NCBI GenBank assembly: GCA_020052935.1
Contig: JAGVOD010000112.1
Location: 1-54,773, forward strand
From: an archaeon
GTDB lineage: Archaea > Nanobdellota > Nanobdellia > Woesearchaeales > UBA11576
Reading direction: 5' to 3'
Length of the DNA: 54,773 nt
Shown: in pieces, positions 1 to 28,654 of the stretch
Layout of the letters: each line of letters opens with the position of its first letter
Position numbering within the stretch: position 1 is the first letter of the stretch
Translations under genes and position numbers: made by a program
Notes under the pieces: model-generated
Databases searched by the model: none
Told to the model about the DNA's origin: nothing
Seen by the model: only the letters and a program-made list of their open reading frames with translations

Positions 1-111
1 TACTCGAACCACAATAATCACAGATAATCATTAAATTCACCTCAAAAAGAACCAAGACAGAGCTAATACTTAAAGATGACGATTATTTGACAACATCCTG
101 CAGAAGAAATA

Positions 112-142: not shown

Positions 143-2938
143 ATGGCCGACGATGCCAGGAAAAAAGAGCTTTTAGCGCAGGAGATCTCGAAAGAGGAGC
201 TCGACATTCTAGAGAAAGATTTCGAGTACTGCAGGAAGCTTAAATCCAGGCATTTCGACAAGGACCTCCAGAAAGTCCTGGACGAAGTCAATGAAGTCCT
301 CAATTTCTTACAGACCCAGCACCTCATAGAGCTGAACCTTGAGAAATACTACATAGAGGGCGAGACAGACCCCAAAGCCCTGGAAGACAAGCTCAATGGA
401 CTGAGAAAGCTGCTCGTCTCGCTGTATCAGGACGAGATCGAAAAGGCGCTCGGCCAGATAGACATCACCATACTTCCGAAAAGGAAAAACCTCATCAAAG
501 AATATGTCGCGCAGCTAGGGCAGCATATCATCGATCCAGCAGCCATCGAGGACTGCGACAGACTGCTAATCGGCGGAGTAGGCAGGTGCCTTGAGATATG
601 CCGTGAGATAAAAGTCATAATCAGCCACAATAAGTCGGGCGAAAGGGAAAAGGTCAGGCAGGAGATCCAGGAGCTAAGGCCTAAGCTCAACAGCTTCATC
701 GAAATCCTCCTCAGACTCCTCAACCAGATAATGTATGTCGACAGCGTGATACAGCAGCTAAAGACAGAGGTATACGACATAGAGCACAACTTGATGAGAG
801 AGTTCGCATTGAGGCACCTCATCTGGCAGATGCTGGAAAACACCAAAGACAAAGGCTGGGTGCAGGTTGGTGTAAGCAGCTACACGCTATATGTGGTCTC
901 AGAAGCAGGCAAGCAGGACTTCCTGGCAACAAAACCTGGCGCGAACATCGGAAAGGAACCATTCGATGAAAATAAAGTCCGCTTGGGGAAAAACAAGGAC
1001 GGCGACCCAAGACCTCTCGCACTGAAGAAATTCTTCTTCAATGTCCAGCGCAAGCCAGACGATTTCCACACCAAGTTTTACGAAGAGCTCCCTCCAGACC
1101 TGAAGGCGCCGGAAAAGGCAGGTGATGCACAGCTCGAAGACCTTTACAGGAAGATGTTCTTCAACGAAGGCCAGCACTACATCGCATTCACAGACCATAA
1201 CGGCGCGTTCAACCCCTGCAAAGACGCAGAGGACTTCTTCATGAGGATACTTCCCTTATTGATGTTTGACAGATTCAAGGGAGAGAGCTTCGACAAGATG
1301 ATCAACTCGATCGTGGAGCCATTCTTCCTGGGGCTCAGCGAGAAGATGGAGTTCAGACATTACGATTCCGCAGGTGATACCTCGTGGAAGATAACGCAGA
1401 AGATACTGGAGCACCAGCGCACGCAAGGCGACATAACAGACCGAGACCAGAAGCAGATAAGCAGCTTCATGGAGCAGGGCTACGCCGCATTGAAATCTGC
1501 ACAGGAAGGAGTCATCTCACTACGGAAAGAGGGCATAAAGACGCCGAAATACTCGAACTTCGTAGACAGGCCATACCTCGTCCACCAGCTCATGATGGAC
1601 ATCCTCAGGCTCGCGATATTCTCAGAAGCAAGGGCGAAAGTCAATGAGCACAACACACTGATCTACACCGGAAGGGAGTCTGGCTTCGAAGGCAGCAACA
1701 CAGTCGCTGTGCATGGCTACAACAACTACATGAAATACCAGCGCATGCTGCAGGTCGTGGTGCCAAAGCTCGACGACGAGCTCAGGAACATCTTTGACCA
1801 TTTCGAGCACTTCAAGGGCTGGGTGATCATGGGACTCCATGATGCGGCCACGTACGACAGGGACAATGCTATCTCATTCGGCAGCCAGGGCAAGTATGGG
1901 AATAACAACAAGAAGGCCCATAAGCTGGTCGGAGGGTACGTCATCAGAGAACAGAAGATGCTGAAGAAGCTGTTCAACGTCGAAAATGATGACGGCGCAG
2001 TGCTGGAGATGATCAGCGGCGAGGACGGCAAGCTGGTCGAGAACGCCGAGAAGAAGGAGCTTGAGCTGCTCGCGACAATAGTCAGCAAGCACGACGAGGG
2101 CACTCTGTGGCTCGACCCGAGCAAGATAAGCGGCGACTCAAAGTTCAAGAAGCAGCTTGTGCTGATATCCTTGTCAGGCCTGGCAGACAATTCCGCAGGC
2201 ATAGGAATGGTCGATGAGCATGGCCATGTACATGTCGACCCTTGGGAAGAGAAAGGGTCATCCGTATTCGTCGTACCATCATGCAAACCTGGCGAATTGC
2301 CCAGCAATGGGGAGATTATGTTCGATATACTGGCAAAGCTGTCGAACGACCCCAAGTATTTCAAGACTCATGATGCTGAGTGGAAAAACATCCTCGCGAT
2401 AATCAAGATGAATGTCGAAGCATACCCTGAACGTGCAGTCAGAGACAAGCTGCTTAAGGGGCTTGCAGACAAGGAGTTCTCTGACAGATCGGCGACATCG
2501 ACAGCAGGCATACTCAATTGCGGCTATATGGAACTCGACAACAACAGCTATGACGGCAAGACGCTCAAGATGAAGATAGTCCTCGATAAGGAAATAATGG
2601 CCAAGCTCGGAAAGATATTCGGTGACAAAAAAAGGGCTAAATTCCTCTTCGACAGGCTCGGAAAGTTCAGCTCGGAGTATAGGCGGTCGCTGAAGAACCT
2701 CACCCCGCCAACTGAAGATAACGACGACTCGGCGCTCATACAGGACCTCAACTCAAAGAGGCTCATCGAGGTCTGGAACTGCAACGAGAAGGGGGAGAAG
2801 ATGGACACTGTCGGGCTGTCTGCAGAAATAGTCGAGGAGTCTGGTATAATGACGAAGAGCCTCATCGAGGACGCCTCCAAGCAGCTGCTGACAGACCTGC
2901 ATAAGTACCATGACGACAGGTACGAAAAGAAAGAATAA
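143..2938 (+). CDS. large hypothetical cytoplasmic protein, 931 aa, charged coiled-coil-like N-terminal third, no recognisable domain
   Basis: Single uninterrupted 2.8-kb ORF. All overlapping ORFs are short shadow frames. It has no TM segments and no catalytic motif I can name. Confidence 0.6.
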   Translation: MADDARKKELLAQEISKEELDILEKDFEYCRKLKSRHFDKDLQKVLDEVNEVLNFLQTQHLIELNLEKYYIEGETDPKALEDKLNGLRKLLVSLYQDEIEKALGQIDITILPKRKNLIKEYVAQLGQHIIDPAAIEDCDRLLIGGVGRCLEICREIKVIISHNKSGEREKVRQEIQELRPKLNSFIEILLRLLNQIMYVDSVIQQLKTEVYDIEHNLMREFALRHLIWQMLENTKDKGWVQVGVSSYTLYVVSEAGKQDFLATKPGANIGKEPFDENKVRLGKNKDGDPRPLALKKFFFNVQRKPDDFHTKFYEELPPDLKAPEKAGDAQLEDLYRKMFFNEGQHYIAFTDHNGAFNPCKDAEDFFMRILPLLMFDRFKGESFDKMINSIVEPFFLGLSEKMEFRHYDSAGDTSWKITQKILEHQRTQGDITDRDQKQISSFMEQGYAALKSAQEGVISLRKEGIKTPKYSNFVDRPYLVHQLMMDILRLAIFSEARAKVNEHNTLIYTGRESGFEGSNTVAVHGYNNYMKYQRMLQVVVPKLDDELRNIFDHFEHFKGWVIMGLHDAATYDRDNAISFGSQGKYGNNNKKAHKLVGGYVIREQKMLKKLFNVENDDGAVLEMISGEDGKLVENAEKKELELLATIVSKHDEGTLWLDPSKISGDSKFKKQLVLISLSGLADNSAGIGMVDEHGHVHVDPWEEKGSSVFVVPSCKPGELPSNGEIMFDILAKLSNDPKYFKTHDAEWKNILAIIKMNVEAYPERAVRDKLLKGLADKEFSDRSATSTAGILNCGYMELDNNSYDGKTLKMKIVLDKEIMAKLGKIFGDKKRAKFLFDRLGKFSSEYRRSLKNLTPPTEDNDDSALIQDLNSKRLIEVWNCNEKGEKMDTVGLSAEIVEESGIMTKSLIEDASKQLLTDLHKYHDDRYEKKE

Positions 2939-3039: not shown

Positions 3040-5130
3040 ATGCCTACGAAAATCTATAAGCGGGACGGTAGGCTCGTAAGGTTCGAGCCTGAGAAGATAT
3101 CTAACGCCATGCACAAGGCATTCTCTGATGTCTGTGTCGATGACTCAAAGATACTTGCTGAGCTGACCCGCAAAGCTGTCAAGGAGGCAGACAAGAAATT
3201 CTACCACAAGATGCCGCGTGTAGAGGATGTGCAGGACATCGTGGAACGCGTGCTGCTGAACGCAGGCTATGAAAGGACAGCCAAAGCATACATGGAATAC
3301 AGAAGGAAGCATGCAGACATACGCGATGCAAAGAAGTTCCTCGGGGTGGCGAGCGACTCGCTAAAGCTCAGCGTCAACGCGATACGCGTTCTGGAGCAAC
3401 GCTACCTGCTGAAGGATGACCACGGCAACGTGATAGAGACTCCTCAACAGATGTTCCACAGAGTCGCGAGGGAAGTGGCACGCGTTGAGGCGCGCTATGG
3501 AAAACGCGACCCTGAAGCCACTGAAGACAAGTTCTACAACATGATGTCAAGGCTCGAGTTCCTGCCTAATTCTCCTACTTTGATGAACGCGGGTACAAGG
3601 ATGGGCCAGCTGAGCGCATGCTTCGTGCTGCCTGTCGAGGACTCGATGGAAGGTATATTCAACACCCTCAAGCACATGGCATTGATACACCAGAGCGGAG
3701 GCGGGACTGGATTCTCATTTTCTCGGCTCAGACCTTCGGGAGACATGGTCGCGTCTACAAAATGCGCAGCATCAGGGCCAGTATCATTCATGAAGATATT
3801 CGACACGGCAACAGACGTGATAAAACAGGGAGGACGCAGGAGAGGCGCGAACATGGGCGTGCTTCGCGTAGACCACCCGGACATAATCAAGTTCATCACA
3901 GCAAAGAAAGATCCTGCACTGTTCCAGAACTTCAACCTCTCTGTCGCTGTGACTGACGAGTTCATGAAAGCAGCAGAGAAAGGCAAGGACTACGAGCTCC
4001 TGAACCCGCGGACAAACGCTGTCGCTGCGAAGATGAACGCAAAAGACGTGCTCAAGCTCATGGTCACGATGGCATGGAACAACGGAGACCCCGGCATCAT
4101 ATTCATCGACGAGGTGAACAGGCACAACCCGACACAGGCATACGGAGAGATAGAATCGACCAACCCTTGCGGAGAACAGCCCCTGCTGCCATACGAGTCA
4201 TGCAACCTCGGCTCTGTGAACCTGGCTAGATTTGTCACAGAGAAGAAAGAGATAGACTGGCACAGGCTGGAAAGGACGGTCAAGCTCGCGGTAAGGTTCC
4301 TCGATAATGTCATAGACGCAAACAACTTCCCGCTCCCAAAGATAGAAGAAGTCACGAAGGCGAACAGGAAGGTCGGATTGGGAGTGATGGGATTCGCAGA
4401 CGTGCTCATAAAGCTCGGAATAGCCTATGATTCTGACAAGGCCGTCAGATTTGCAGAGAAGACAATGAAGTTCATACACGACAAGGCGATTGAGGAAAGC
4501 CAGGAATTGGCGCGGGAGAGAGGCAGCTTCCCCAACTTCAAGAAAAGCACACTATCAAAGAAGCACCGCGTGATGAGGAACGCATCCCTTACCACTGTCG
4601 CGCCGACAGGCACGATAAGCATAATCGCAGGATGCTCGTCTGGAATAGAACCGCTTTTTGGGGTGAGCTTTGTCCGCAATGTCATGAGCGGAGCAGAACT
4701 GCTCGAGACCAATGCTGAGTTTGAAAAGACTGCAAGGCAGAAAGGATTCTACTCAAAAGAACTGCTGATGGAAGTCGCTCGGCAAGGCACCGTCCAGAAA
4801 GTAAATGGCGTGCCGAAAGATACTAAGCAGCTATTTGTGACTGCGCTGGACATAAAGCCAGAGTGGCACATCAAGATACAGGCAGCATTCCAAAGATATA
4901 CTGACAGCGCGGTGTCCAAGACCATAAACTTCCCGTCAACAGCGACGATTGACGACGTCGAGAAGGCGTACAAGCTCGCGTTCAAGCTCAAATGCAAAGG
5001 CATAACTGTCTACAGGTATGGCAGCAGGCCAGGCCAGGTATTGACATTCGGCGAAAAACCGAAAGAAAGATATCTGAGCGCGGACTCAGAGTACGCAGGA
5101 GGATGCCCGAGCACGGAATGTCCATTTTAG
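3040..5130 (+). CDS. nrdJ: adenosylcobalamin-dependent (class II) ribonucleotide reductase with N-terminal ATP-cone
   Basis: ATP-cone start KIYKRDGRLVRFEPEKISNAMHKAF. Class II active-site block TNPCGEQPLLPYESCNLGSVNL. C-terminal Cys pair GGCPSTECPF. 696 aa with no intein-sized insert. Confidence 0.9.
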   Translation: MPTKIYKRDGRLVRFEPEKISNAMHKAFSDVCVDDSKILAELTRKAVKEADKKFYHKMPRVEDVQDIVERVLLNAGYERTAKAYMEYRRKHADIRDAKKFLGVASDSLKLSVNAIRVLEQRYLLKDDHGNVIETPQQMFHRVAREVARVEARYGKRDPEATEDKFYNMMSRLEFLPNSPTLMNAGTRMGQLSACFVLPVEDSMEGIFNTLKHMALIHQSGGGTGFSFSRLRPSGDMVASTKCAASGPVSFMKIFDTATDVIKQGGRRRGANMGVLRVDHPDIIKFITAKKDPALFQNFNLSVAVTDEFMKAAEKGKDYELLNPRTNAVAAKMNAKDVLKLMVTMAWNNGDPGIIFIDEVNRHNPTQAYGEIESTNPCGEQPLLPYESCNLGSVNLARFVTEKKEIDWHRLERTVKLAVRFLDNVIDANNFPLPKIEEVTKANRKVGLGVMGFADVLIKLGIAYDSDKAVRFAEKTMKFIHDKAIEESQELARERGSFPNFKKSTLSKKHRVMRNASLTTVAPTGTISIIAGCSSGIEPLFGVSFVRNVMSGAELLETNAEFEKTARQKGFYSKELLMEVARQGTVQKVNGVPKDTKQLFVTALDIKPEWHIKIQAAFQRYTDSAVSKTINFPSTATIDDVEKAYKLAFKLKCKGITVYRYGSRPGQVLTFGEKPKERYLSADSEYAGGCPSTECPF

Positions 5131-5151
5131 TTCCAAATTGTTCAAGTTAAA

Positions 5152-5374
5152 GCAAAGCCACGACCGTCGTTGCCTCTTTAGCGCGTAACAACCACTATTT
5201 TAGTCACGGAAATTATTGGGATTTTTCAGTTTAACTTCGTAATAATATTCGCACGCGCGTGGCAACGAACGGAGCTTTTGCGACCACGGGGAGCATTTGA
5301 AATGCGAAGCATTTCTAATGTGCTCAGAAACCAGCAGGTTTCTGACACAAAAGCGAAGTAGGGCGTGGCTTTGC
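5152..5374 (-). repeat. scaffold element, subfamily 1, copy 1 (reverse orientation); candidate structured RNA or cis element
   Basis: Terminal helix GCAAAGCCACG (5152-5162) / CGTGGCTTTGC (5364-5374). The reverse complement carries the invariant CCCTACTTCGC (5353-5363) and the AT-rich core (about 5194-5250) shared with copies at 10816-10993 and 17616-17772. Confidence 0.75.
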
Positions 5375-5422
5375 GACAAAGTTGAGTCAGGCTTCGGCGC
5401 TGCTGGTGTAAAGGTGATCATC

Positions 5423-5947
5423 ATGAAAAAAACCGGATTCATACACGTACTGACTGGCAATGGTGGCGGGAAGACAACGTCTGCACTGGGCGTAGCGATG
5501 CGTAGCGTCGGACAGGGCCACCGCGTCGTGGTCGTGCAGTTCATGAAAGGACGCACAGACATCGGCGAAGTAAAGATACAGAAGAAGCTCGGCGGCGACT
5601 ACACAGTGTACCAGTTCGGCACAAAGAAATTCGTGAACCTGAAGAAACCATCGCAGCAAGATGTCGAGCTTGCCAATGAGGCATTGGGATTCGCGCGCGA
5701 GGAGATACTTGAGAAAAGCCCACCAGAACTGCTGATTCTCGACGAGATAAACCTTGCAGCAGCGATAGGGCTGATAGAGACGGACAAAGCCGTGGAAATG
5801 CTGCGCAAGGCACCGCGCGGAGTAGACATCTACCTCACAGGAAGACGAGCTCCAAAGGCTTTCATCAACATCGCAGACTACGTGACTGTGGTTGAGGACA
5901 AGAAAAGAGTCAGGCTGGTGTCTGCGAGAAGAGGGATAGATTACTAG
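5423..5947 (+). CDS. cobA: ATP:cob(I)alamin (corrinoid) adenosyltransferase, CobA/CobO/BtuR family
   Basis: MKKTGFIHVLTGNGGGKTTSALGVAMRSVGQGHRVVVVQFMKG matches the CobA P-loop and QFxKG block. I start at Met43 of the track ORF (5423) because the upstream 42 codons run through the repeat element. Confidence 0.85.
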   Translation: MKKTGFIHVLTGNGGGKTTSALGVAMRSVGQGHRVVVVQFMKGRTDIGEVKIQKKLGGDYTVYQFGTKKFVNLKKPSQQDVELANEALGFAREEILEKSPPELLILDEINLAAAIGLIETDKAVEMLRKAPRGVDIYLTGRRAPKAFINIADYVTVVEDKKRVRLVSARRGIDY

Positions 5948-6000
5948 AGGAAGAAAAGAAAAAAAGATCATTCATATAGGAACTTAGCATCTACGTATAA

Positions 6001-6287
6001 CTGCTCTATCATAAAAGGCGATACCTGACCATATGTGCCGACTTCCACCCTCTGAGCGTAGATATCGAGCACATCCTCCCCGAGCTTCTCCTGAAGCAGC
6101 AGCTGGCTAAGGAGAAGCCAGTCAGGTCACGACATTCAGCGGCATCAGGGGGATAAGAGAGTCATTGTACAAACTGCTGGAGGCTGAGGGCACAGAGCAC
6201 CACACATTCGGCTCTGCGAAAAAGTCCCTGATGATGGGCGATGCGTTCTGCGTCTCGTTCCACTCCTCACAGGACATGTTCACGTGA
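6001..6287 (+). pseudogene. frameshifted, truncated remnant of a TrmB-family regulator gene
   Basis: Frame 1 (6001-6156) gives ..VDIEHILPELLLKQQLAKEKPVRS.. and the -1 frame (6132-6287) gives TFSGIRGIRESLYKLLEAEGTEHHTFGSAKKSLMMGDAF. These parallel VYEGIKGAKAIWERLLEECKANDEWLVLGAPKSAELMGGYF of the intact TrmB at 51738-52481. The HTH N-terminus and the C-terminal third are missing. Confidence 0.45.
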
Positions 6288-6333
6288 GATTTATAAACAG
6301 CAGGTGATTTAGTATCCTTGAGGGTGAATCAGC

Positions 6334-7176
6334 ATGGATAACGGTAATGCGCTCGTTGTATTCCAAGGCAAGAAAATAAGGCGAAAATGGTTTAACGATG
6401 AGTGGTGGTTTTCTGTAGTTGACATAATATGGGCAGTAACACAGACAGACAGAGCCAGAAAGTATTGGTCTGACCTCAAAACAAGGCTTACTGAAGAGGG
6501 TTTTGAGTTGTCCGCAAAAATCGGACAACTGAAATTAGTATCTACTGATGGCAAATCCTACCTTACGGATTGCGTTAATACTAAGAATGCTTTCAGGATA
6601 ATCCAGTCTATTCCTTCAAAGAATGCAGAGCCATTCAAACAGTGGCTTGCGCAGGTAGGTTATGATAGGGTGCAGGAAATAGAAAACCCTGAACTTGCCC
6701 AAAAGCGGATGAAGGAGATTTACAAGGCGAAAGGATATTCTGACGAGTGGATTGAAAAACGAGTTAGGGGCATAGCCGTAAGGCAGGAGCTTACTGGTGA
6801 GTGGAACAAAAGGGGTGTGAAAGAGGACAGGGAGTATGCCATCCTAACGAATGAGATAAGCAAGGCGACATTTGGCAAGACTGTTGAGGAATACAAGAAC
6901 TTCAAGGGACTGAAAAAAGAGAACCTGCGAGACCATATGGATGACTTGGAGCTGATTTTCACAATGCTTGGTGAAGCATCCACAACAAGGATAGCAAAAG
7001 ATAAAGATGCTCGAGGGTTTGTTGAAAATAAGGGAGCTGCAAAGGAAGGAGGGACAGTTGCAGGAGTGGCAAGAAAAGAACTTGAACAGAGAAGCATCCG
7101 GAAAGTATCCACCCCAGAGAACTATCTTTCTCAACCTGAGAAGAAGAAACGGTTGGAAGATGCGCGTAAGAAGTAA
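6334..7176 (+). CDS. Bro-N domain protein with DinD-like (DNA-damage-inducible protein D / antirepressor-like) C-terminal region
   Basis: N-terminus FQGKKIRRKWFNDEWWFSVVDIIWAV is Bro-N-like. The C-terminal ENLRDHMDDLELIFTMLGEASTT block resembles DinD. The gene is visibly more AT-rich than its neighbours. Confidence 0.65.
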   Translation: MDNGNALVVFQGKKIRRKWFNDEWWFSVVDIIWAVTQTDRARKYWSDLKTRLTEEGFELSAKIGQLKLVSTDGKSYLTDCVNTKNAFRIIQSIPSKNAEPFKQWLAQVGYDRVQEIENPELAQKRMKEIYKAKGYSDEWIEKRVRGIAVRQELTGEWNKRGVKEDREYAILTNEISKATFGKTVEEYKNFKGLKKENLRDHMDDLELIFTMLGEASTTRIAKDKDARGFVENKGAAKEGGTVAGVARKELEQRSIRKVSTPENYLSQPEKKKRLEDARKK

Positions 7177-10140: not shown

Positions 10141-10794
10141 TTAACGGCTTACACCAACACCGACACGGTTACAGAAATCTCTTATCTGGCATTGGCTGCA
10201 TAATGGGGAGATCGGCTTGCATATGTTCTGGCCCCAGGTGACTAACAGGTCGTTGTAGATGAGCCAGTATTTCCTGGGGAGCTTTGCACGCAGGGCGAAC
10301 TCGGTCTGCTCTGGATTCTTTGTCTTGACATATCCGAGGCGGTTACTTATGCGGTGGACGTGAGTATCAACCGCGACACCGTGCTTCTTGAAGCCTATCG
10401 TGACTACTATGTTGGCTGTCTTTCGTCCTACGCCGTGGAACTTCAACAGTTCATCGATGGTGTCAGGCACTTTTGAGTTGTAGTGCTCTAAGAGCTGCTT
10501 TGAGATGTCACGGATCCTCACTGCTTTTGTCTTGTAGAAACCCACAGGGTAGATGAGCGTCTCTATTCTCTTGACTGGCACAGCTGCGAGCTTCTTCGGA
10601 GTATCAGCCACTTTGAAAAGCCTGAACGAGGCTTTTGCTGTCGTGTCATCCTTGGTCCGGAGACTGAGAATGCAGGAGATAAGGACTCGGAACGGGTCGT
10701 TCCTCAACGCTATCTCGCTGACTATCGGCATGTGGAACTGCTTTATCTCACGCTTCAGAATGGGGATGATCTTGTCGATGTGGACGGGTTTCAT
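10141..10794 (-). CDS. nth: endonuclease III (HhH-GPD DNA glycosylase/AP lyase with 4Fe-4S cluster)
   Basis: HhH motif LLKFHGVGRKTANIVV and C-terminal cluster CKPISPLCSQCQIRDFC. Confidence 0.9.
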   Translation of the reverse strand: MKPVHIDKIIPILKREIKQFHMPIVSEIALRNDPFRVLISCILSLRTKDDTTAKASFRLFKVADTPKKLAAVPVKRIETLIYPVGFYKTKAVRIRDISKQLLEHYNSKVPDTIDELLKFHGVGRKTANIVVTIGFKKHGVAVDTHVHRISNRLGYVKTKNPEQTEFALRAKLPRKYWLIYNDLLVTWGQNICKPISPLCSQCQIRDFCNRVGVGVSR

Positions 10795-10815
10795 ATTGAC
10801 TCCTTAGTTCAGGCC

Positions 10816-10993
10816 GCAAAACCTCCACGCCCTACTTCGCTTTTTCTCGGCCTGGCCTCGAAAAAGCTCTGGTCGCCGCCGAGCCCGCCTAACTATTTTT
10901 TCCGAAGGTAATACGAAAAAATCCAATTATTTCCGTGACTAAAATTGCCGAATTAGCGGGCCAGGTTGGCGGCGACGGTCGTGGAGGTTTTGC
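10816..10993 (+). repeat. scaffold element, subfamily 1, copy 2
   Basis: Terminal helix GCAAAACCTCCACG (10816-10829) / CGTGGAGGTTTTGC (10980-10993). Also CCCTACTTCGC (10830-10840), hairpin GCTTTTTC...GAAAAAGC, GC helices GCCGCC..GCCCGC / GCGGGC..GGCGGC, and the conserved AT-rich core. Confidence 0.75.
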
Positions 10994-11048
10994 TTGTAAC
11001 ATTAATGTTTGTGGCGACGGTCACGATGCTGATTGGGCTTATACTCTT

Positions 11049-11645
11049 TTAACCAGGTATATTCCTCAGCTCTACAACATCATTATCAAAGAGGTTATCA
11101 TCCCTGGCAAAGCCTGAACGCACCTCGAGGACATACTTGGCAAGGCCAGCAGGCTCGTAGACAAGGCACTGCGGCGGGATGCAAGGATCTGCGGATTTCT
11201 CGATATGCGTGATGCGGCTCTTGCCGCTTATCCAGATTATATCTATAGGAAACTTCATGTCTTTCATCCACATGCGCTGCACACCTGGCTTTTCGAAGAC
11301 AAACAGCATGCCTGTGTCAGGAGGCAGAGAGGAATAATTGCCTAGCCCAATCTCCAGCTCATCCTGCGTTGTCGCGATGGTGAGATTCACGCAGACATCA
11401 TGCTTGAAACAAGCCTGAGGAGCGCCTTCAGCTTTCTTCGGAGCCTGGATAAAAGAGACTGCTGTAAGAATGATCATGACAATGATTGTGCCGACAACAA
11501 CCCTTATCGCAGTGCTGTGCTTATTCACCTTCTCCTTGAGACCTTGCTCCTGATTCTCGTCTGGATGCAATTTCTGCCTAAGATGCTCGACGTCCATGGC
11601 AGCCAAGATTACAAGAATATTTATTAATGTTTGGGTAGCCTTCAA
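11049..11645 (-). CDS. DUF192 (COG1430) domain protein with N-terminal membrane anchor
   Basis: GMLFVFEKPGVQRMWMKDMKFPIDIIWIS ... AKYVLEVRSGF matches the DUF192 pattern. The start codon is uncertain (internal Met possible). Confidence 0.7.
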   Translation of the reverse strand: MKATQTLINILVILAAMDVEHLRQKLHPDENQEQGLKEKVNKHSTAIRVVVGTIIVMIILTAVSFIQAPKKAEGAPQACFKHDVCVNLTIATTQDELEIGLGNYSSLPPDTGMLFVFEKPGVQRMWMKDMKFPIDIIWISGKSRITHIEKSADPCIPPQCLVYEPAGLAKYVLEVRSGFARDDNLFDNDVVELRNIPG

Positions 11646-13256: not shown

Positions 13257-13317
13257 CTCTTTAGAGGCACAAGAATAGAGAGGGATTTTTAAATGTTATG
13301 ATGCGCTGCGCTGACAC

Positions 13318-13542
13318 GGTGGCAGGTTTTGTGCCTGAGCTCGCCTGCCTTGCAGGCTCGCTGGCGCCAGCTCGCGCCGCGTTGTCGTTGACGCGGACAT
13401 GGTTCCCCCCGGATGTCACACAAATCCCAGGGATTTGTGGGAACTCACGAATGCCAGGCATTCGAGAGTGGGCATCCCCCACCATGCCTGACAGTTTGAC
13501 GAAAGGCGCTCGCGACATTGGCGCCACCGGCACAAAACCCAC
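13318..13542. repeat. scaffold element, GC-rich subfamily 2 (copy c)
   Basis: Terminal helix GGTTTTGTGCC (13325-13335) / GGCACAAAACC (13529-13539). Side hairpin GCCTGC-CTT-GCAGGC. Inner helix GGCGCC/GGCGCC. The cargo is full of perfect triloop hairpins (CACAAATCC-CAG-GGATTTGTG, GGCAT..ATGCC). It abuts the stop codon of the gene at 13543. Confidence 0.65.
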
Positions 13543-14355
13543 TTAACCCGATGCGTCAAGCGTGTCCAGATACTGCCTGACCTGCCGCAGCCTTTCCAAA
13601 GGCTCTCTTGCGCCAGTTATATAGGAGCCTATGACAAGATTATCTGCGCCAGCCGCCACTATCTCAGGGATTGTCTTCTCATTGACACAGCCATCCACCT
13701 GGATTCTAATGCACTTATGGATACTCCTCACCGCCCTTATCTTTTCCGTGACTTCAGGCATGTATCGCTGGCCGTCACTGCCAGAGGAGACACCCATCAA
13801 AAGAATAGCGTCTGCGAAAGAGCCCAAGTCATCAGGAAGGTCAGCAAAGGAGGTGCGCGGCTCAAGAGCAAGCCCTGCCCTGAAACCACTCATCTTGATA
13901 TCCCGAAGCAATGACAGCACCTGCCTGCTGCACGCTTTGTCTGCTGCGCGCAGCTCTGCATCAAGCAAAGGATTGCCGGTGCTTACTGAAGAGAGGTCAT
14001 ATTCTTTGTTGTCATAAGGCCGCGACACCCAGTCCCTGTAAGCCTCCCTGTGGACAGTCACCTGTATCCTATGCCTATCCTCTTGCTTTGTAATCCTCTC
14101 AAGAACTGAAAAAGGCTCCTCAGGAGAGGCATCCATGAGATGGAAGTCCAGGTTTGCTACGCTGCCGAGCATATCCAGCAAATGGCCGAAATAACAATCC
14201 GGAAAAACGCTCTTACCACTTATAAAAGGCTCACGCATGGAATCGATGTGGACCCAGCCTAACCCTGCTGAGGCAAGCTCCTTGATCAGAGGAACATGAC
14301 TCTTGATTACGGGCCCGTACTCGAGGATCGATAAAGCGATTTCTACCTTGCGCAT
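13543..14355 (-). CDS. divergent ribulose-phosphate 3-epimerase-like TIM-barrel protein
   Basis: IALSILEYGP..AGLGWVHIDSM and IQVDGCVNEKTIPEIVAAGADNLVIGSYI resemble RPE N- and C-terminal blocks, but the catalytic region is divergent. Confidence 0.5.
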   Translation of the reverse strand: MRKVEIALSILEYGPVIKSHVPLIKELASAGLGWVHIDSMREPFISGKSVFPDCYFGHLLDMLGSVANLDFHLMDASPEEPFSVLERITKQEDRHRIQVTVHREAYRDWVSRPYDNKEYDLSSVSTGNPLLDAELRAADKACSRQVLSLLRDIKMSGFRAGLALEPRTSFADLPDDLGSFADAILLMGVSSGSDGQRYMPEVTEKIRAVRSIHKCIRIQVDGCVNEKTIPEIVAAGADNLVIGSYITGAREPLERLRQVRQYLDTLDASG

Positions 14356-14440: not shown

Positions 14441-15461
14441 ATGAATAGAGACAGGGAAACCATGGCTGAAGTATATTACTACAAAGATGCAGAGACCATG
14501 TTTCTTGCTAAATTGGAATCAGAGATTAAGAATACGTTTACCGGCTGTAAGAAGATAGCGGTCAAGCTACACTTCGGAGAGCCAGGCAACAAGACAGCAT
14601 TCAAGCCAGAAGACATAGCGCCGATTGCTGCCGTATTGAAGAAGCTCGGCATTGAGTTCTTTCTTTATGACACTTCGGTATCGTATGACAGCCCGAGAAA
14701 CAACACCGAAGGCTACAAACATGTGGCGCTGGAAAAAGGCTGGGGAAAGATCGGCGAAGTGGTGATTGATGGGGGCTTTGTCAAAGTCAAGATGAAGAAC
14801 CTCACTCACGAAGTCGGCAAGCCGCTGGCTGACGCTGATGGCGTGCTTGTTGTGAGCCACTTCAAAGGCCATGTCTGCTGTGGGTTCGGCGGAGCCATAA
14901 AGAACCTTGGCATGGGCGCATTGTCACCTAAATCAAAGCAGGCCATACATGATGGCGGAAGGGTGAAATCATGATGGCGGAAGGGTGAAATACGTCGGCG
15001 GCTGCACGCAATGCAAAACCTGCGAAAAGGTCTGCCCGCTCAACGGCATAAAAGTCACAGACAAGCCCGAGTTCAACCTATGCTACGGCTGCTCGAACTG
15101 CGCCTACTTCTGCCCTGCAGGCGCGATAAAGCCGAATCTCGAATACTTCGACGTACTGCTCGCAGAAGGCGCGGGTGCTGCGCAGAGCAAGTTCAAGAGA
15201 CAGTATTATGTGACTTTCCTGAAGAATATAACCAAGGAATGCGATTGCGAATCAGACCCTAAAGGGATAATAGCTAAGGACAAAGGCGTGCTGCTGAGCA
15301 ATGACATCGTCGCCATAGACAAGGCTGCGTATGATGTCATAACGTCCAAAGGCACGGATGATGTATTCCTCAAGCACAACAAGAAGACAGGGCTTGAACA
15401 CGTGAAGGCTGCTGAGAAGATGGGGATGGGAAAATCAGCGTATATTCTTGTAGAGGGGTGA
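14441..15461 (+). pseudogene. DUF362/COG2768-type Fe-S protein gene split into two ORFs (14441-14974, 14985-15461) by a 22-bp tandem duplication
   Basis: The upstream ORF has KLHFGEPGN..LYDTSVSY..SHFKGHVCCGFGGAIKNLGMG. The downstream ORF has CTQCKTCEKVCP and CSNCAYFCP ferredoxin motifs. Deleting one 22-bp copy fuses them in frame (..AIHDGGRVKYVGGCTQC..). Confidence 0.6.
14948..14991 (+). repeat. perfect 22-bp tandem duplication CATGATGGCGGAAGGGTGAAAT x2
   Basis: 14948-14969 and 14970-14991 are identical. The length is not a multiple of 3. Confidence 0.95.
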
Positions 15462-15463
15462 GC

Positions 15464-16009
15464 ATGGCGAAGAAGAAACTATTGCTGCACACCTGCTGCG
15501 CGCCATGCAGCACGCACTGCGTCAAGGAACTGCTTGATGATTATGATGTGACTATGTATTTCTACAACCCCAACATACACCCATACGCAGAGTATGACAA
15601 GCGGCTGGAGAACGCGCTGAAAGTCGGCAAGGAGCTCGGTGTGCCTGTAATAGAAGCAGAGTACGACCCCGAAAGATGGGTGGAGCTCATCGCCGGATTC
15701 GAGGAAGAGCCAGAAGGCGGCAAACGATGCAGGATATGCTTCTCGATGAGGCTCGCCAGGACAGCGGAGTATGCTGCTGCGAATGGGTTTGATGCTTTTA
15801 CGACAACAATGACAATATCGCCGCATAAGGACGAGAAGACAATCAATGAGATTGGTGCAGAGCTTGCGAAGAAGCACAAAGTCGCGTGGGTGCATTCAGA
15901 CTTCAAGAAGAAAGACGGCTTCAAGAAATCAGGCGAGATTAGCAAGAAGATGGGATTGTACAGGCAGAATTATTGCGGGTGCTTCTATTCGGTGAGGACT
16001 GAACAATAG
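15464..16009 (+). CDS. queH: epoxyqueuosine reductase QueH (DUF208)
   Basis: LLLHTCCAPCS, YFYNPNIHP, RCRICFSMRL, FTTTMTISPHK and LYRQNYCGCFYS blocks. ATG 15464 lies 6 nt after GAGGGG. The track ORF starts at GTG 15458. Confidence 0.85.
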   Translation: MAKKKLLLHTCCAPCSTHCVKELLDDYDVTMYFYNPNIHPYAEYDKRLENALKVGKELGVPVIEAEYDPERWVELIAGFEEEPEGGKRCRICFSMRLARTAEYAAANGFDAFTTTMTISPHKDEKTINEIGAELAKKHKVAWVHSDFKKKDGFKKSGEISKKMGLYRQNYCGCFYSVRTEQ

Positions 16010-16517: not shown

Positions 16518-17519
16518 TCAGTTTGTGAATATCATCATCGCATCGCCAAAAGAATAGAACCTATATCTCTCTTTTACTGCAATCTCGTATGCGTGCATCA
16601 CGTTGTCGAGGCCGATGAGGGCTGCGATGAGCATGATCAATGTTGATTTCGGGAGATGGAAGTTCGTTATCATGATGTCTGGCTTCAGCTTCCACTTGTA
16701 GCCTGGATAGATGAATATGCTGGTCGACTTCTTTGCTGCGTGGATGATGCCCATGTCATCTGCTGCGGACTCGAGGCTGCGGAGAGAGGTTGTGCCGACG
16801 ACGATGAGGCGGCCTTTCCTGTTGTTGATTTTCTCTGCTGCTTCCTCTGTTATCTCGAACCATTCCTCATGCATCACGTGCTTCTCTATGTCTTCTGTCT
16901 TAACAGGAAGGAAAGTGCCGTAAGAGACATGCAATGTGACCTTGACTATCTCTACGCCGAGACGTTCTACGTCGCGCAGCAGTTCTGGAGTGAAGTGGAA
17001 GCCTGCTGTCGGCGCTGCGATGCTGCCTGACTTCTTCGCGAACACTGTCTGGTACTGCTCTCTACTCGCTTTCTTCTTGATGTAAGGCGGAAGAGGCATC
17101 TCGCCGATCTTCTGCAATGCTGCATCAAGGTCTTCTGTGTTGAACATCACTTCAAACAATCCGTCGCTGCCGCCTGTGACCTTGGCTTTGATATCGTTCG
17201 AGAATACGAACTCTGTGCCTGGCTTTATCTTGTTGGTCTTGATCATGCACTCGTACAACCTTGGTCCGAGCTTCTTCGAGACCAAGAATTCTGCAGGAGA
17301 GCCCGTTGTCTTCCTGCCTAAAAGCTTGACCGGCTCCACTTTCGTGTCGTTCAGGACAAGCACGTCGCCTTTCTTCAGATAAGATATGATATCTTTGAAG
17401 GTCTTGTGCTCAATCTTGCTTCCTTTTACAATCATAAGCCTGCTACTATCTCTTGGATCAGCAGGTTCTTGCGCAATCAGCTCCTTCGGAAGATGATAGT
17501 CGAACTGGGAAAGCTTCAT
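16518..17519 (-). CDS. queA: S-adenosylmethionine:tRNA ribosyltransferase-isomerase
   Basis: MKLSQFDYHLPKELIAQEPADPRDSSRLMIV start, PLPPYIK, AAPTAGFHFT, and full-length collinearity with the QueA family. Confidence 0.9.
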   Translation of the reverse strand: MKLSQFDYHLPKELIAQEPADPRDSSRLMIVKGSKIEHKTFKDIISYLKKGDVLVLNDTKVEPVKLLGRKTTGSPAEFLVSKKLGPRLYECMIKTNKIKPGTEFVFSNDIKAKVTGGSDGLFEVMFNTEDLDAALQKIGEMPLPPYIKKKASREQYQTVFAKKSGSIAAPTAGFHFTPELLRDVERLGVEIVKVTLHVSYGTFLPVKTEDIEKHVMHEEWFEITEEAAEKINNRKGRLIVVGTTSLRSLESAADDMGIIHAAKKSTSIFIYPGYKWKLKPDIMITNFHLPKSTLIMLIAALIGLDNVMHAYEIAVKERYRFYSFGDAMMIFTN

Positions 17520-17566: not shown

Positions 17567-17796
17567 GCAGTGCCACGCCATGCTACGCTTTGCTTCGCAA
17601 AACCGAGGCCTGGCCGCAAAGCCACGCCCTACTTCGCTCGCCAAGCGAGCTCTCGTGCCGCCACGCCCGCATGAATATTTTTTACGAAGTTAATCCAAAA
17701 AATTCCAATTATTTCAGTTACTAAATTTGCCGCAATAGCGGGCTGATTAGGCGGCAACGGTCGTGGCTTTGCTCGAGTTATTGGCGGTGGCACTGC
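17567..17796 (+). repeat. scaffold element, subfamily 1, copy 3 (core 17616-17772 plus an extra outer stem)
   Basis: Core helix GCAAAGCCACG (17616-17626) / CGTGGCTTTGC (17762-17772). Also CCCTACTTCGC (17627-17637), hairpin GCTCGC-CAA-GCGAGC and the AT-rich core. Outer stem GCAGTGCCACGCCA (17567-17580) / TGGCGGTGGCACTGC (17782-17796). Confidence 0.75.
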
Positions 17797-17825: not shown

Positions 17826-18155
17826 TCAGAGAAGCCTGTCCTCAGGGACAAAGTTGCCTGAGCCGCAGTTCGGGCAGAGATTTATCGGGAAATCCTTCTT
17901 CCTGGAGAAGTGGAACTTGCAGTCATAGCAGTAATACTTCGCCTTCTGCATGGCCATGGCCTGCCTGCGCCTGAACTCAAGCTCAGCATCCTCTGACTTG
18001 CGCTTGGTATGGCAGGGGGAACAGAAGACCTGAGAGCCGTCTGTCATCATCAATGCTTCAGGGAACTCAAAACCGCACCTAGAACATGAGCGCATAGGCT
18101 CTGGAATCTCCTCTTCCCTGTTGAATATCCCTTTAAACCAGTCACCGAGCCCCAT
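17826..18155 (-). CDS. double zinc-ribbon protein (109 aa), unknown function
   Basis: Two CxxC...CxxC pairs (CSRCG..CSPCH and CYDCK..CPNCG). Confidence 0.6.
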   Translation of the reverse strand: MGLGDWFKGIFNREEEIPEPMRSCSRCGFEFPEALMMTDGSQVFCSPCHTKRKSEDAELEFRRRQAMAMQKAKYYCYDCKFHFSRKKDFPINLCPNCGSGNFVPEDRLL

Positions 18156-24447: not shown

Positions 24448-25404
24448 ATGGCAGATGTACTACCCGGCATCAGGTATGTGATGCAAAACGCGGAACATGT
24501 GAGGATAAATGAGGATAAGATCAAGGAGTTCTGCAGCAAACTCGACCACAAGCATATAAAACACTGGATGACAGAAGCACCATTCGACCTGTCAAAGTTG
24601 AGCAATGATGATAAGCTGAACTTCTTGTTCATATTCAATTCAATAAGCTTCTCTTACTGGGGCAAGCCTAAATGGGCTATCGAATACGCGGACCAGCAAC
24701 TCGACGGGTCTTGGGCGATGATTGCATGCTTAGGCCGAGCCTTCGAGACAAATGCTGCAATGTTCAACCCGGAACATCTCGAGAAAATCCCTAAAGAAGA
24801 GTTCGCGCAGATACTTAAGGGAAACATCGAGATCCCTCTGCTCGAAGAGAGATGGAAGATCCTCAAGCAAGCAGCAGCCATACTCAATGACAGATTCGAA
24901 GGAGAGTTCAAGAATGTGATTGCACTGGCGAACGGAGACGCCCAAAAGCTGCTGGACCTGATAATAAACAATTTCCCTACATTTGAGGATGTGCGAATCT
25001 ACAAAGGCAAGAACATCCACTTCTACAAACGCGCTCAGCTGCTCGTCTCTGACATCTACCAGGCATTCAAAGGGAAGGGATATGGCAGATTGAAGAATAT
25101 AGACAAGCTGACAGCATGTGCAGACTACAAACTGCCCAAGATATTAAGACGGCTCGGCATCCTAGAATATGACACTCAACTTGCTAGTAAGATAGAGTCA
25201 AAAACACCACTGCCAGAAGGAAGTCCAGAGGAAGTCGAGATAAGGGCTGCGACGATATGGGCGACAGAGCTTATCAAGGAAGGACTGAAGAGCAAGCTGC
25301 CTCATGTCGATTCTATCCACATAAACGATCATCTGTGGCTCCTGAGCCAGAACAAGTCGCCTGATGACAAACCATATCACAGGACACGGACCACTTCTTA
25401 CTAG
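24448..25404 (+). CDS. DUF2419 / QNG1-like queuosine salvage protein (queuosine 5'-phosphate N-glycosylase/hydrolase family)
   Basis: FYKRAQLLVSDIYQAFKGKGYG..IDKLTACADYKLPKILRRLGILEY..PEGSPEEVEIRAATIWA closely parallels the conserved core of the DUF2419/C9orf64 family. A TATA-like ATATTTAAAA lies 28 nt upstream. Confidence 0.75.
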   Translation: MADVLPGIRYVMQNAEHVRINEDKIKEFCSKLDHKHIKHWMTEAPFDLSKLSNDDKLNFLFIFNSISFSYWGKPKWAIEYADQQLDGSWAMIACLGRAFETNAAMFNPEHLEKIPKEEFAQILKGNIEIPLLEERWKILKQAAAILNDRFEGEFKNVIALANGDAQKLLDLIINNFPTFEDVRIYKGKNIHFYKRAQLLVSDIYQAFKGKGYGRLKNIDKLTACADYKLPKILRRLGILEYDTQLASKIESKTPLPEGSPEEVEIRAATIWATELIKEGLKSKLPHVDSIHINDHLWLLSQNKSPDDKPYHRTRTTSY

Positions 25405-27928: not shown

Positions 27929-28141
27929 CTAGTATTTGGCTGCCAGCTTAATATCATCTGCCTTGACAGTGACGCGGCCGGAATGCGTCGAAAGCTTGAC
28001 TGCGCGCTCAGCGATCTCCGTGGCAATCTCCTCGACCACATCTTTCAACGCGGACTTGGCCTTGTCAGAAGCGCGTTCAGCGCCGCAATTCTTCAATATC
28101 TTTTCCATAGCAGCGAGCGGAAGCAATTTTTCAGTCACCAT
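27929..28141 (-). CDS. archaeal histone (HMf/HMfB-like histone fold), 70 aa
   Basis: LPLAAMEKILKNCGAERASDKAKSALKDVVEEIATEIAERAVKLSTHSGRVTVKADDIKLA aligns along its whole length with the HMfB pattern (AGAERVSDDA..RHAGRKTIKAEDIELA). Confidence 0.9.
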   Translation of the reverse strand: MVTEKLLPLAAMEKILKNCGAERASDKAKSALKDVVEEIATEIAERAVKLSTHSGRVTVKADDIKLAAKY

Positions 28142-28427
28142 TTCATTCCCTCCAGATTTGATTGCGATTGACCAAAACTACCAAAATAAACGTTAGTGGG
28201 ATAGGTAAACAAGGGTTATTTTTAATATTTTCGGTTTTAGAGGGCGATTTTGGGCTAGAACGGCTGGATAAGGCAAATAAAGGCTTCTGACATGGTAGGC
28301 CTCTTTAATCTAATCTTGGCATCGGAAATGCACCAAAACCTTTAAAAACAACAATCAACACTGGAACAGCATATGGGGAAAGAGGTGAAGAAAGTTCTAG
28401 GTAATCGTAGATATGTGGCTATCTTCG

Positions 28428-28637
28428 GCGCTGGTGAAAATCTCTCCTTCGGAGGTTGCCGCCAGGCTTCGCTTGTCGATACTTTCTCAGATATGCGTCA
28501 TCCCCGTAGGGGGTACTTAGAAACCTTCGGTTTCTGGTACCTCGCTCGCTACGCTCGGAGGCATCCCCCTGCCGCATGCGAAGATTATCGCAAAGGGTCG
28601 CTACGCTTAAAGGCGGCAACACAATTTTCACCAGCGC
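28428..28637. repeat. scaffold element, GC-rich subfamily 2 (copy b), in the leader/promoter region of the channel operon
   Basis: Terminal helix GCGCTGGTGAAAAT (28428-28441) / ATTTTCACCAGCGC (28624-28637). Side hairpin CTCC-TTC-GGAG. Inner helix TTGCCGCC (28456-28463) / GGCGGCAA (28612-28619). The cargo shares GCCAGGCTTCGCT, CCCCGTAGGGGG and CAAAGGGTCGCT with copy a at 36227-36389. Confidence 0.7.
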
Positions 28638-28654
28638 TGCTGCGAGGTATTTAG

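Follow-up and report, generated by a model that had tools for sequence, protein, structure and literature searches.

Several described systems come close to the repeat family reported here. A MITE-Tracker census found about 105 MITEs per Mb in a Woesearchaeal genome (PMC11602168). In bacteria, the REP unit is a single hairpin of 20-40 nt that carries a terminal GTAG/CGTC tag and is mobilised by RAYT (PMC3733652). REP/BIME and GTAG/CGTC repeats are GC-rich extragenic palindromes that are often transcribed in operons (PMC3733652), occur in mosaic or nested arrangements, insert into other palindromes, and have proposed roles in mRNA 3′-end protection and termination. The ERIC/IRU, Correia (CREE/NEMIS), RUP and BOX elements, also bacterial, are imperfect palindromes of ~100-200 bp in transcribed intergenic regions, form size variants via internal insertions at fixed points, and can serve as sources of terminators, promoters or processing sites. 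PATEs, which are known in archaea, and other hairpin transposons of the IS200/IS605 type depend on DNA hairpins and have no outer-end inverted repeat or duplication. Integron attC sites keep their structure while their sequence varies, fold as single-stranded DNA, and are intergenic with a preferred orientation.

The family described here (family 1), found in a 54.8-kb stretch of archaeal DNA (the window, analysed over its whole length), has features of each of these. Like MITEs, which measure less than ~500 bp, it is short, non-coding, multi-copy and intergenic, is present or absent between related genomes, and has terminal inverted repeats of 11-15 bp (P1 of 11-14 bp in family 1, 14-15 bp in sister elements); a target-site duplication of 10 bp is present in one sister element, and the element density in the window, ~130 per Mb, may be set beside the census figure. 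However, family-1 copies themselves are without target-site duplication and without a known cognate transposase, the interior consists of nested palindromes with covarying sequences, and the termini are common to families with unrelated interiors. The likeness to REP/BIME covers all the features listed above, and CGTC-type REPs likewise have no identifiable transposase, but the family-1 unit is a branched palindrome of 157-223 nt (a three-way junction) in an archaeal host, its GTAG occurs only within the junction on the complementary strand (GAAGTAGGG), between the arms and not at the outer end, and no RAYT was seen in the window. The ERIC, Correia, RUP and BOX elements have no sequence in common with family 1, which is known from sequence alone, and Correia elements carry TA duplications together with IHF or promoter motifs. 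PATEs, which the c2 insertion (Table 1) resembles at its outer ends, differ in that distinct subterminal hairpins stand at either end and a conserved target of 4-5 nt lies 5′ of the left end; in family 1 the ends pair with each other, and neither a TnpA/TnpB gene nor a conserved target was shown. Finally, attC sites carry R''-L''/L'-R' sites with a GTTRRRY core and stand in arrays of cassettes beside an integrase. No such R''/R' core was seen in the sequences read here, array and integrase are both absent, housekeeping genes on both strands surround the copies, and the central region is conserved instead of variable.

Family-1 copies in the window and in sediment metagenomes

The host is a Woesearchaeota/Nanoarchaeota archaeon, where the nearest named homologues and 18 kb of synteny are found. 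Family 1 comprises ten copies of 157-223 bp, three in the window (c1, c2 and c3; Table 1) and seven from sediment metagenome contigs, and a nested layout of P1, P2, P3a/P3b and AT-rich core is common to all ten. On re-reading, the three window copies were exactly as given in the preliminary description, with every stem it had named, including P1 GCAAAGCCACG/CGTGGCTTTGC, the paired 3-bp insertion in P1 of c2, the compensatory changes of c1 (P3a from CGCCGCC to CGTTGCC, P3b from GCCCGC to GCGCGT) and both additional hairpins in P2 of c1. As it had also stated, 1-nt indels break any common reading frame; insertions disrupt such a frame as well, and the copies have no conserved coding frame. An unpaired core segment of ~30 nt, with the pattern CCAATTATTTC.GTGACTAA..T, is conserved without explanation, and the AT core carries T-runs of 4-7 on both strands.

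Table 1 Positions of the family-1 copies, their parts and related features in the window (strand in brackets; parts of c1 as read on the minus strand)
Feature	Position	Description and setting
Copy c1	5152-5374 (-)	between class II RNR (3040-5130+) and CobO (5423-5947+)
c1 P1	5364-5374/5152-5162	
c1 junction	5355-5363	CCCTACTTC
c1 P2	5348-5354/5274-5280	
c1 P3a	5261-5267/5168-5174	
c1 P3b	5253-5258/5181-5186	
c1 mini-hairpin	5234-5240	ACGAAGT
c1 core	5192-5220	conserved, unpaired
Two-hairpin module	5294-5347 (-)	54 nt, in c1 P2 loop; TGTC-hairpin-TGAGCACATTAGAAA-hairpin-AAATG
DUF192 stop to EndoIII start spacer	10795-11048	254 nt
Copy c2	10816-10993 (+)	
c2 P1	10816-10829/10980-10993	
c2 junction	10830-10838	
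c2 P2	10839-10846/10860-10867	
c2 P3a	10871-10880/10968-10977	
c2 P3b	10883-10888/10956-10961	
c2 mini-hairpin	10902-10908	CCGAAGG
c2 core	10922-10950	
Sister element, family-2 type	13318-13545 (-)	G-run core on minus strand; directly after stop of upstream gene (13543-14355-), ahead of DUF211 promoter
Outer shell around c3, family-2 type	17567-17796 (-)	P1 GCAGTGCCAC, 17567-17576/17787-17796
Copy c3	17616-17772 (+)	
c3 P1	17616-17626/17762-17772	
c3 junction	17627-17635	
c3 P2	17636-17650	GCTCGC-CAA-GCGAGC
c3 P3a	17655-17662/17750-17758	
c3 P3b	17665-17670/17738-17743	
c3 mini-hairpin	17684-17690	
c3 core	17704-17732	
Sister element	28428-28637 (-)	14-bp perfect closing stem and small CTCC-TTC-GGAG hairpin around family-2 core; divergent spacer of histone gene and K+ channel gene
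Sister element	34509-34645 (+)	14-bp perfect P1, no AT core; between two co-directional minus-strand genes
Sister element	36228-36389 (-)	14-15-bp terminal inverted repeat; family-2-like G-run core

The 16-mer CCACGCCCTACTTCGC occurs exactly three times against 0.22 expected, and a core 23-mer three times against 0 expected. A repeat search paired the window copies over 88-110 nt at 72-81% identity, whereas the whole set of ten, spread over at least seven unrelated loci, is 72-86% identical over ~170 nt, unpaired segments included. Because copies within the genome are 72-81% identical, nothing points to very recent movement. The invariance of CCCTACTTCGC among the metagenome copies is a product of the search pattern used to find them, which selected for it. 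The family had been presented as undescribed, which further searches bear out: nhmmer with the family-1 alignment returned only the ten known copies, Rfam gave zero matches to the whole window at gathering score and, for individual elements at E<=5-10, zero except one 15-nt chance match, and BLAST against phages and plasmids gave none. Among viral contigs a 17-mer had 0 matches and a module 16-mer had eight, all chance. The exact 17-mer had 40 matches in GTDB representative genomes, all single ones in unrelated bacteria and judged to be chance since no other element part lay alongside.

Covariation and strand symmetry of the stems

In the alignment of the ten copies (A2), 99.2% of the 381 stem cells are paired, and P1 is perfect in every copy. 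Twelve pairs are changed on both sides and none on one side only, a level reached by 0 of 500 shuffles; the compensatory changes noted earlier are real. All stem variation leads from one Watson-Crick pair to another with zero G:U intermediates. Single copies fold far better than shuffles on either strand (RNA z -6.0 and -7.9; DNA z -4.0 vs -4.7), and the G:U share of predicted pairs across 20 elements is 6.1% on one strand vs 6.4% on the other. With variation free of wobble and strands that fold equally, the use of these changes as a sign of an RNA scaffold is not supported. The hairpins close on 3-nt loops (GAA/TTC/CAA triloops with a C:G closing pair), and the elements contain GCGNAGC mini-hairpins; both are known for exceptional stability as DNA hairpins (PMC13037366). 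A core helix (T-run/A-run) and an alternative P3c pairing were considered as strand indicators, proved weak and inconsistent, and no strand was assigned from them.

We propose that arm complementarity is maintained at the DNA level, either through single-stranded or cruciform hairpins that would be needed for mobilisation, through intra-strand template switching in which one arm would be copied from the other, or both. Template switching can create hairpins and yield compensatory changes in a single step (PMC8794818), and maintenance at the DNA level would account for changes that are all double, Watson-Crick and strand-symmetric. Since DNA palindromes can give perfect "compensatory" covariation, covariation alone is no evidence of a functional RNA.

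Insertion sites, nesting and sister elements

Each of the window copies c1, c2 and c3 corresponds to an empty site in relatives, which represents insertion polymorphism. DUF192 and EndoIII overlap (ATGA) or are separated by up to ~12 nt in eight loci from seven related sources (L110, L122, L123/L124, L125, L126, L128, L129 and L130), so the long spacer between these genes in the window is specific to its lineage. It consists of c2 with flanks of 21 and 55 nt, which include a partial second element and the EndoIII ribosome-binding site AAGGAG. The RNR-CobO spacer, occupied by c1 in the window, measures 12 nt in L130 and 21 nt in L129, and the Zn-ribbon-to-QueA spacer is only 82 nt long, promoter included, in L130 and holds an intact family-2 element in L126, one and the same spacer carrying different element families in different relatives. 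These comparisons show that family 1 has been gained at intergenic sites, and lost or replaced at such sites too, among them a translationally coupled gene junction.

Homology between the c2 flanks and the closest copy (L079) reaches only ~10 nt past P1, and the outer ends of the c2 insertion have no clear inverted repeat or duplication. A decayed 9-bp duplication (TGGTTAAAA / GGAGTCAAT against TGAGTAAAA at the empty site) is identical at four of nine positions and is not claimed. Direct repeats of >=6 nt are absent beside P1 in every family-1 copy, and the shared 5′ flank is loose (CWGGYC in 5/8 copies). Pfam/NCBIfam searches and gene tables yielded no transposase or RAYT-like gene in the window or the fetched relatives, and the window's unknown proteins bear no transposase signature in Pfam or NCBIfam. 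The preliminary description had named a linked transposase with matching inverted repeats as the mark of an ordinary MITE, on which the evidence is divided: one sister element carries a target-site duplication of 10 bp, but no transposase was recognised in the 54.8 kb.

Four other GC-rich elements have perfect closing stems of 11-15 bp and the P1-P2-P3 order that had been claimed for them; sister families altogether are without the AT core. The element at 34509-34645 matches family 1 in its P2, with a TC...TC-framed loop and a TCGT linker, and the family-2 core at 28428-28637 reads GGGGGATGCC...CCCCCTACGGGGATG on the minus strand. A perfect 10-bp direct repeat, GGAACAGATG, lies on either side of the element at 36228-36389 (at 36218-36227 and 36390-36399) and is a target-site duplication. 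Copy c3 is nested in an older element of the second family, the interior of which has been replaced by c3 and half a middle helix (GCAAAACCGAGGCC, 17597-17610). The two-hairpin module of c1 is missing from the L053 copy at the equivalent CobO-proximal site, and a second copy of it lies in the AT core of L041 with different covarying stems; nested and composite copies were found at unrelated loci. Family 1 belongs to a wider superfamily of a Woesearchaeota sub-clade with the shared termini GCA..GCCAC / GTGGC..TGC. Stems of >=13 bp mark four elements in the window (7-8 elements counting the repeat family) and three in 18 kb of L110; L125, L128, L129 and L130 have zero such elements, and L126 has no such stem, its three recognised elements having stems of 11-12 bp.

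Mobile palindrome, transcript signal or DNA site

Family 1 is best read as a previously undescribed, new member of the MITE/REP/ERIC kind. We consider it probable that it is a lineage-specific, multi-copy, non-coding palindromic DNA repeat, MITE/REP-like, and not a dedicated RNA gene; among the options offered in the preliminary description, a REP/BIME/Correia-like element or mobile hairpin fits best. The most likely mobiliser would be a trans-acting transposase encoded outside the window. The 10-bp duplication of the sister element is of the staggered-cut transposase type; family 1 shows none. Copies c1 and c2 and the 34509 element lie inside operons and are therefore expected to be co-transcribed, in which case they would form a very stable three-way junction (~-77 to -82 kcal/mol). 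Likely side effects, modelled on bacterial REP/BIME, ERIC and Correia elements, would be a block or stabiliser at the 3′ end of the upstream message and an insulator ahead of the downstream gene, although any RNA-level role of family 1 is putative and unproven.

A fairly unlikely alternative is that the element is a cis-acting structured RNA, a 3′-UTR stabiliser, terminator or operon insulator that spread because it is useful, with a three-way junction selected on the mRNA-sense strand, i.e. the complement of the orientation in which the elements were first described. The rule that they face one way relative to transcription holds in 5/5 co-directional cases in the window, as originally stated, but drops to 7 to 2 in the wider sample, with L041 and L110:9791-9972 in the opposite sense. 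Element direction changes along with that of the local genes, the distance from a stop codon to the start of the element is usually 0-55 nt, c2 and 34509 lie inside operons and so are transcribed, the folds are very stable, and the would-be mRNA strand has purine-rich junctions (GAAGUAGGG) and GA...GA frames around the P2 loops; the consistent orientation in the window and the purine-rich strand are a hint of transcript-level selection. Against this stand 381 stem cells without G:U pairs or one-sided changes, the lack of strand asymmetry in fold energy or G:U content, copies between divergent (L053, L077, 28428, 36228) and convergent (L088) genes, the location of the core's GCGAAGC mini-hairpin on the other strand, and close relatives' genes that work without elements at the same sites. 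The same absence of wobble, the equal folding and G:U content of the strands and the empty sites in close relatives weigh against the "genuine ncRNA" first entertained. Although the compact closed architecture, the conserved unpaired segments and the want of a conserved coding frame would suit an independent small non-coding RNA gene with its own promoter, closed by P1, there is no promoter room upstream on either strand, P1 begins 21 nt away from the start codon of EndoIII when read in the original orientation, the TATTATAAAC-type promoter box is missing from the element and Rfam holds no relative, which makes such a gene distinctly improbable. A cobalamin riboswitch was considered because the c1 spacer separates a B12-dependent RNR from CobO, and was rejected since Rfam gives no match and the same element precedes unrelated genes.

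The AT-rich core between GC clamps could instead form a regulatory or architectural site in DNA, whether a protein-binding site, a bidirectional oligo-T terminator and promoter cassette, or a region that melts or extrudes easily. The conserved unpaired core, its T-runs on both strands and the new EndoIII ribosome-binding site brought by c2 are in keeping with this proposal, which we nevertheless judge improbable: the core is without the canonical BRE/TATA motif of this lineage, sister families do without an AT core, and the sites are dispensable in relatives. The lineage's promoter box of TATTATAAAC type precedes QueA in the window, L126 and L128, and QueA, DUF211 and L076 each have a promoter of their own downstream of the element, ahead of the start codon; a promoter in the AT core, which has no such box, was rejected on these grounds. 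If the hairpins were not mobile and had formed where they stand, through template-switch mutation of intergenic DNA, a documented mechanism (PMC8794818), one would expect the perfect stems, loops of minimal size and compensatory differences at multiple positions that are seen between copies at equivalent sites. However, this has almost no chance of explaining ten copies, 72-86% identical, at seven or more unrelated loci, and an independent in-place origin of family 1 is refuted by dispersed homologous copies that include the unpaired segments; template switching can only be a maintenance mechanism at most, never the origin of copies. More speculatively, and in our view unlikely, the superfamily may be a new hairpin-based mobile system of DPANN, or its three-way junction an exapted RNA module that separates or stabilises cistrons. 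In the former case, modular palindromes with GCA..GCCAC ends would insert preferentially into each other's loops or interiors like "Russian dolls". Template switching would preserve their perfect complementarity, and their mobilisation would lack the classical signature of inverted repeats and duplication.

DPANN genomes are very small and streamlined, yet about one structured palindromic element per 7 kb occurs here, and one of these has come to separate even a pair of translationally coupled genes; the consequence is a fast turnover of selfish DNA in this lineage. A role in transcripts, should the elements have one, would make them the first described case of REP/ERIC-like operon punctuation among DPANN archaea. 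The repeats also fragment metagenome assemblies, as contig L113 ends inside a family-1 copy and most copies were recovered from contigs of 1.6-5 kb. In the window, the elements give rise to spurious ORF calls, e.g. at 5200-5562, 13261-13542 and 28373-28654.

Architecture and covariation of family 1

The preliminary description laid out three copies of an element, here family 1 (c1, c2 and c3; Table), and direct reading and full-length alignment agree with that layout; the stems and compensatory changes it listed are all present, and the coordinates of the parts were located. Repeat searches of the window aligned 10875-10984 with 17657-17766 at 81% identity, and 5151-5245, in inverse orientation, with both other copies at 72-75%. 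The 16-mer CCACGCCCTACTTCGC has three exact occurrences in the window (0.22 expected), as does a core 23-mer (0 expected). In an alignment of ten copies, the order is P1 (11-14 bp), junction CCCTACTTC, P2 hairpin, linker CTCT(C/G)GT, P3a (9-10 bp), P3b (6 bp) and an AT-rich core, followed by P3b', P3a', GT and P1'. The P2 loop is framed by invariant TC...TC, and the core holds a mini-hairpin (N-CGAAG-N') and ~30 nt of conserved unpaired sequence.

The stem covariation of family 1 is real. RNAalifold returns the named layout from this alignment, in which 99.2% of 381 stem cells are paired and 12 of the 41 pairs have changed on both sides, with no pair varying on one side only. The observed pairing and covariation values were reached by none of 500 shuffles, and sliding the structure by 1-3 columns lowers the paired fraction to 32-51%.

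Searching GTDB representative genomes with the invariant 17-mer returned only isolated matches, 40 in number and all chance occurrences in unrelated bacteria. A scan of JGI metagenomes yielded 69 matches, with the whole element present in seven (L041, L053, L076, L077, L079, L088 and L089, contigs Ga0315274/5 and Ga0315294/7), and nhmmer with the ten-copy alignment found no additional family-1 copy among the retrieved contigs.

Coordinates of elements, neighbouring genes and other features (window positions unless another contig is named)
Feature	Position	Strand	Context
Family 1, c1	5152-5374	-	class II ribonucleotide reductase (RNR) 3040-5130 (+); CobO 5423-5947 (+)
Family 1, c2	10816-10993	+	DUF192 gene 11049-11645 (-); endonuclease III (EndoIII) 10141-10794 (-)
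Family 1, c3	17616-17772	+	Zn-ribbon ORF 17826-18155 (-); QueA 16518-17519 (-)
54-nt module	5294-5347	-	P2 loop of c1
54-nt module, L041	about 1340-1395	-	AT core
Family 2	13318-13545	-	
Family 2	28428-28637	-	
Family 2	36228-36389	-	10-bp direct repeat, 36218-36399
Family 2, c3 shell	17567-17796		around c3
Family 2, L110	9791-9972; 14533-14666; 17010-17145		
Family 2, L126	2074-2202		
Further AACAGATG copies	36188-36195; about 36494-36504 (inverted)		near 36228-36389 element
Queuosine/dihydrouridine synthase loci	15458-16009; 16518-17519; 24448-25404; 52482-53492		
70-aa ORF	27929-28141	-	reads as archaeal histone (includes AAMEKILKNCGAERASDKAKSALKDVVEEIA)
Overlapping ORF	27936-28196	+	spurious
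ORF calls across elements	5200-5562; 13261-13542; 28373-28654		likely artefacts
RNR, L110	6446-9673		1075 aa
Variable islet	5948-7176		Bro-N domain protein 6334-7176
Variable islet, L110	10605-11697		NTP_transf_2/HEPN pair
1491-aa ORF	19767-24242		38-nt repeat, 21867-21904 and 22071-22108
ORFs of 931, 393 and 302 aa	143-2938; 42838-44019; 53456-54364		

Insertion sites and a second family

Comparison with related contigs shows that the family-1 copies are insertions. The DUF192 stop overlaps the EndoIII start in L110 (ATGA), the pair is likewise abutting or overlapping in L122 (EndoIII 90% identical), L123/L124 (88%), L125 (84%), L126/L127 (82%), L128, L129 and L130, and in the window they are separated by 254 nt. 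Within this spacer lie c2, flanking stretches of 21 and 55 nt, part of a second element (CATCGTGACCGTCGCCAC) and a new ribosome-binding site (AAGGAG); no clear inverted repeat or duplication could be shown at the spacer's outer ends. Between RNR and CobO there are 12 nt in L130, 21 nt in L129, a family-2 element in L110, a third variant in L126 and family 1 in the window; L053 and L113, a contig ending within its copy, likewise carry family 1 just upstream of CobO in the position and orientation of c1. In L130 the Zn-ribbon-to-QueA spacer comprises 82 nt with only the promoter; in L126 it is occupied by an intact family-2 element, and in the window by a family-2 outer shell whose interior is replaced by c3. 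The composite of c3, its middle helix and a portion of the outer shell is found again at an unrelated locus in L077/L089 (RNase HII/pilin), with a different part deleted. A 54-nt two-hairpin module interrupts the P2 loop of c1; it is absent from the corresponding L053 copy and lies elsewhere in the L041 copy (Table). Its linkers are conserved (GTGTC/TGAGCACATTAGAAA/AAATG), its stems covary, and it resembles a small mobile unit in its own right.

The GC-rich sister elements at 13318, 28428, 34509 and 36227 have the P1-P2-P3 order ascribed to them, with perfect closing stems of 11-15 bp (14-mers expected by chance in the window, about 0.06); the window contains seven to eight elements when the repeat family is counted. 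Family 2 shares a core, GGGGGAUGCCCC-AUCC-GGGGAAUG, in which a G-run, a C-run and a second G-run might pair into alternative hairpins. Its distribution is wider than that of family 1, and one and the same spacer carries it in the window and in L126. Common to both families are the 5' terminus GCA..GCCAC(C/G) and the 3' terminus AGCGRAG...GGC-GUGGC..UGC (mRNA-sense strand). Stems of at least 13 bp occur in four elements of the 54.8-kb window and three in 18 kb of L110, in none of the three recognised elements of L126 (11-12 bp), and nowhere in L125, L128, L129 and L130 (~53 kb in all); these differing counts therefore indicate expansion in one sub-clade. The perfect 10-bp direct repeat flanking 36228-36389, GGAACAGATG, has a score matched in 0.2% of random placements with generous offsets allowed and is the signature of a staggered-cut transposase; no other element of the superfamily, family-1 copies included, has a clear target-site duplication.

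Nature of the element

Family 1 is a structured repeat with several dispersed copies; these are insertions, show nesting and differ in presence between relatives. We consider it probably a palindromic repeat of the MITE/REP/ERIC kind, non-autonomous and specific to this lineage. It resembles MITEs in being small and multi-copy, with terminal inverted repeats and polymorphic insertions, but lacks their target duplication; a REP is ruled out by the unit size and the missing terminal GTAG/CGTC tag, and the element is not an attC site. Mobilisation may proceed through an unseen transposase, and pairing of the arms would be kept at the DNA level by a hairpin or cruciform requirement and/or by template switching, which during replication is a documented route to hairpins and to several 'compensatory' changes at once (PMC8794818). 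Where co-transcribed, the element would fold into a stable three-way junction, with blocking of 3' exonucleases or insulation of cistrons as possible effects. Hairpin birth purely in situ is highly improbable and, for family 1, is refuted by homologous copies at dispersed loci.

Neither strand of the element is singled out by its fold or G:U content. The two strands of c2 fold at -76.7 (z -6.0) and -81.8 kcal/mol (z -7.9), and those of c3, folded as DNA, at z -4.0 and -4.7. Predicted G:U pairs amount to 6.1% and 6.4% on the two strands of 20 elements, versus 12.3% in shuffles, and are located in the weak core, outside the conserved stems, where none of 381 cells is G:U and all 24 changed cells pass from one Watson-Crick pair to another. 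Hairpin loops are of 3 nt (GAA, TTC, CAA, AAA) with a C:G closing pair, and the recurrent motif GCGNAGC (GCGAAGC, GCGTAGC) is a classic extraordinarily stable DNA mini-hairpin (PMC13037366). Fold symmetry, absent stem G:U, triloops and this motif are what DNA palindromes show. An independent ncRNA gene and a regulatory or architectural site in the DNA are both improbable readings of the element. We regard a cis-element acting at the RNA level as unlikely; on the would-be mRNA strand, the junction strands and the frames of the P2 loops are rich in purines (GAAGUAGGG, AGAG, GA...GA), a weak hint of transcript-level constraint.

The strand on which c1, c2 and c3 were described is antisense to the flanking genes in all three cases, with the P1/CCCTACTTCGC/P2 end directed towards the downstream gene's start. 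In co-directional contexts, c1, c2, c3, 13318, 34509, L076 and L079 share one polarity relative to transcription, and L041 and L110:9791-9972 are exceptions; the proposed orientation rule stands for the five co-directional window elements, and at 7:2 overall it is suggestive and not significant. Other copies lie between divergent (L053, L077/L089, 28428, 36227, L110:17010) or convergent genes (L088, L110:14536). Many copies begin 0-55 nt past a stop codon, and the recognisable downstream promoters (QueA, DUF211, L076) lie between element and gene.

A published census reported MITEs at very high density in a Woesearchaeal genome (PMC11602168), so the phenomenon in general is already known. No description of family 1, its architecture or its nesting was found in the literature searched, and no Rfam family corresponds to the element.

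Host and other features of the contigs

CobO and EndoIII have their closest named homologues in Candidatus Woesearchaeota/Nanoarchaeota MAGs (66-84% amino-acid identity), the window is syntenic at ~3-18 kb with L110, L126 (GCA_016929255.1), L129 and L130, and its genes include those for TrmB/AsnC regulators, DUF835 and an archaeal histone, all of which identifies the host as a DPANN archaeon. Bacterial-type queuosine genes occur in this archaeon (QueH, QueA and a queuosine-salvage protein), together with a dihydrouridine synthase, and the QueA/QueH arrangement is kept in L126, L128, L129 and L130. The RNR of L110 contains a LAGLIDADG intein, and those of the window (696 aa), L126 and L130 have none. 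The CobO-to-AP endonuclease interval is a variable islet (Table), empty in L126 and L130. The three ORFs of 931, 393 and 302 aa had no Pfam or NCBIfam match, and the 1491-aa ORF carries a MopE-like metal-binding motif and an internal repeat. Around 41.5-44.3 kb, GC content is lower and short ORFs are many.
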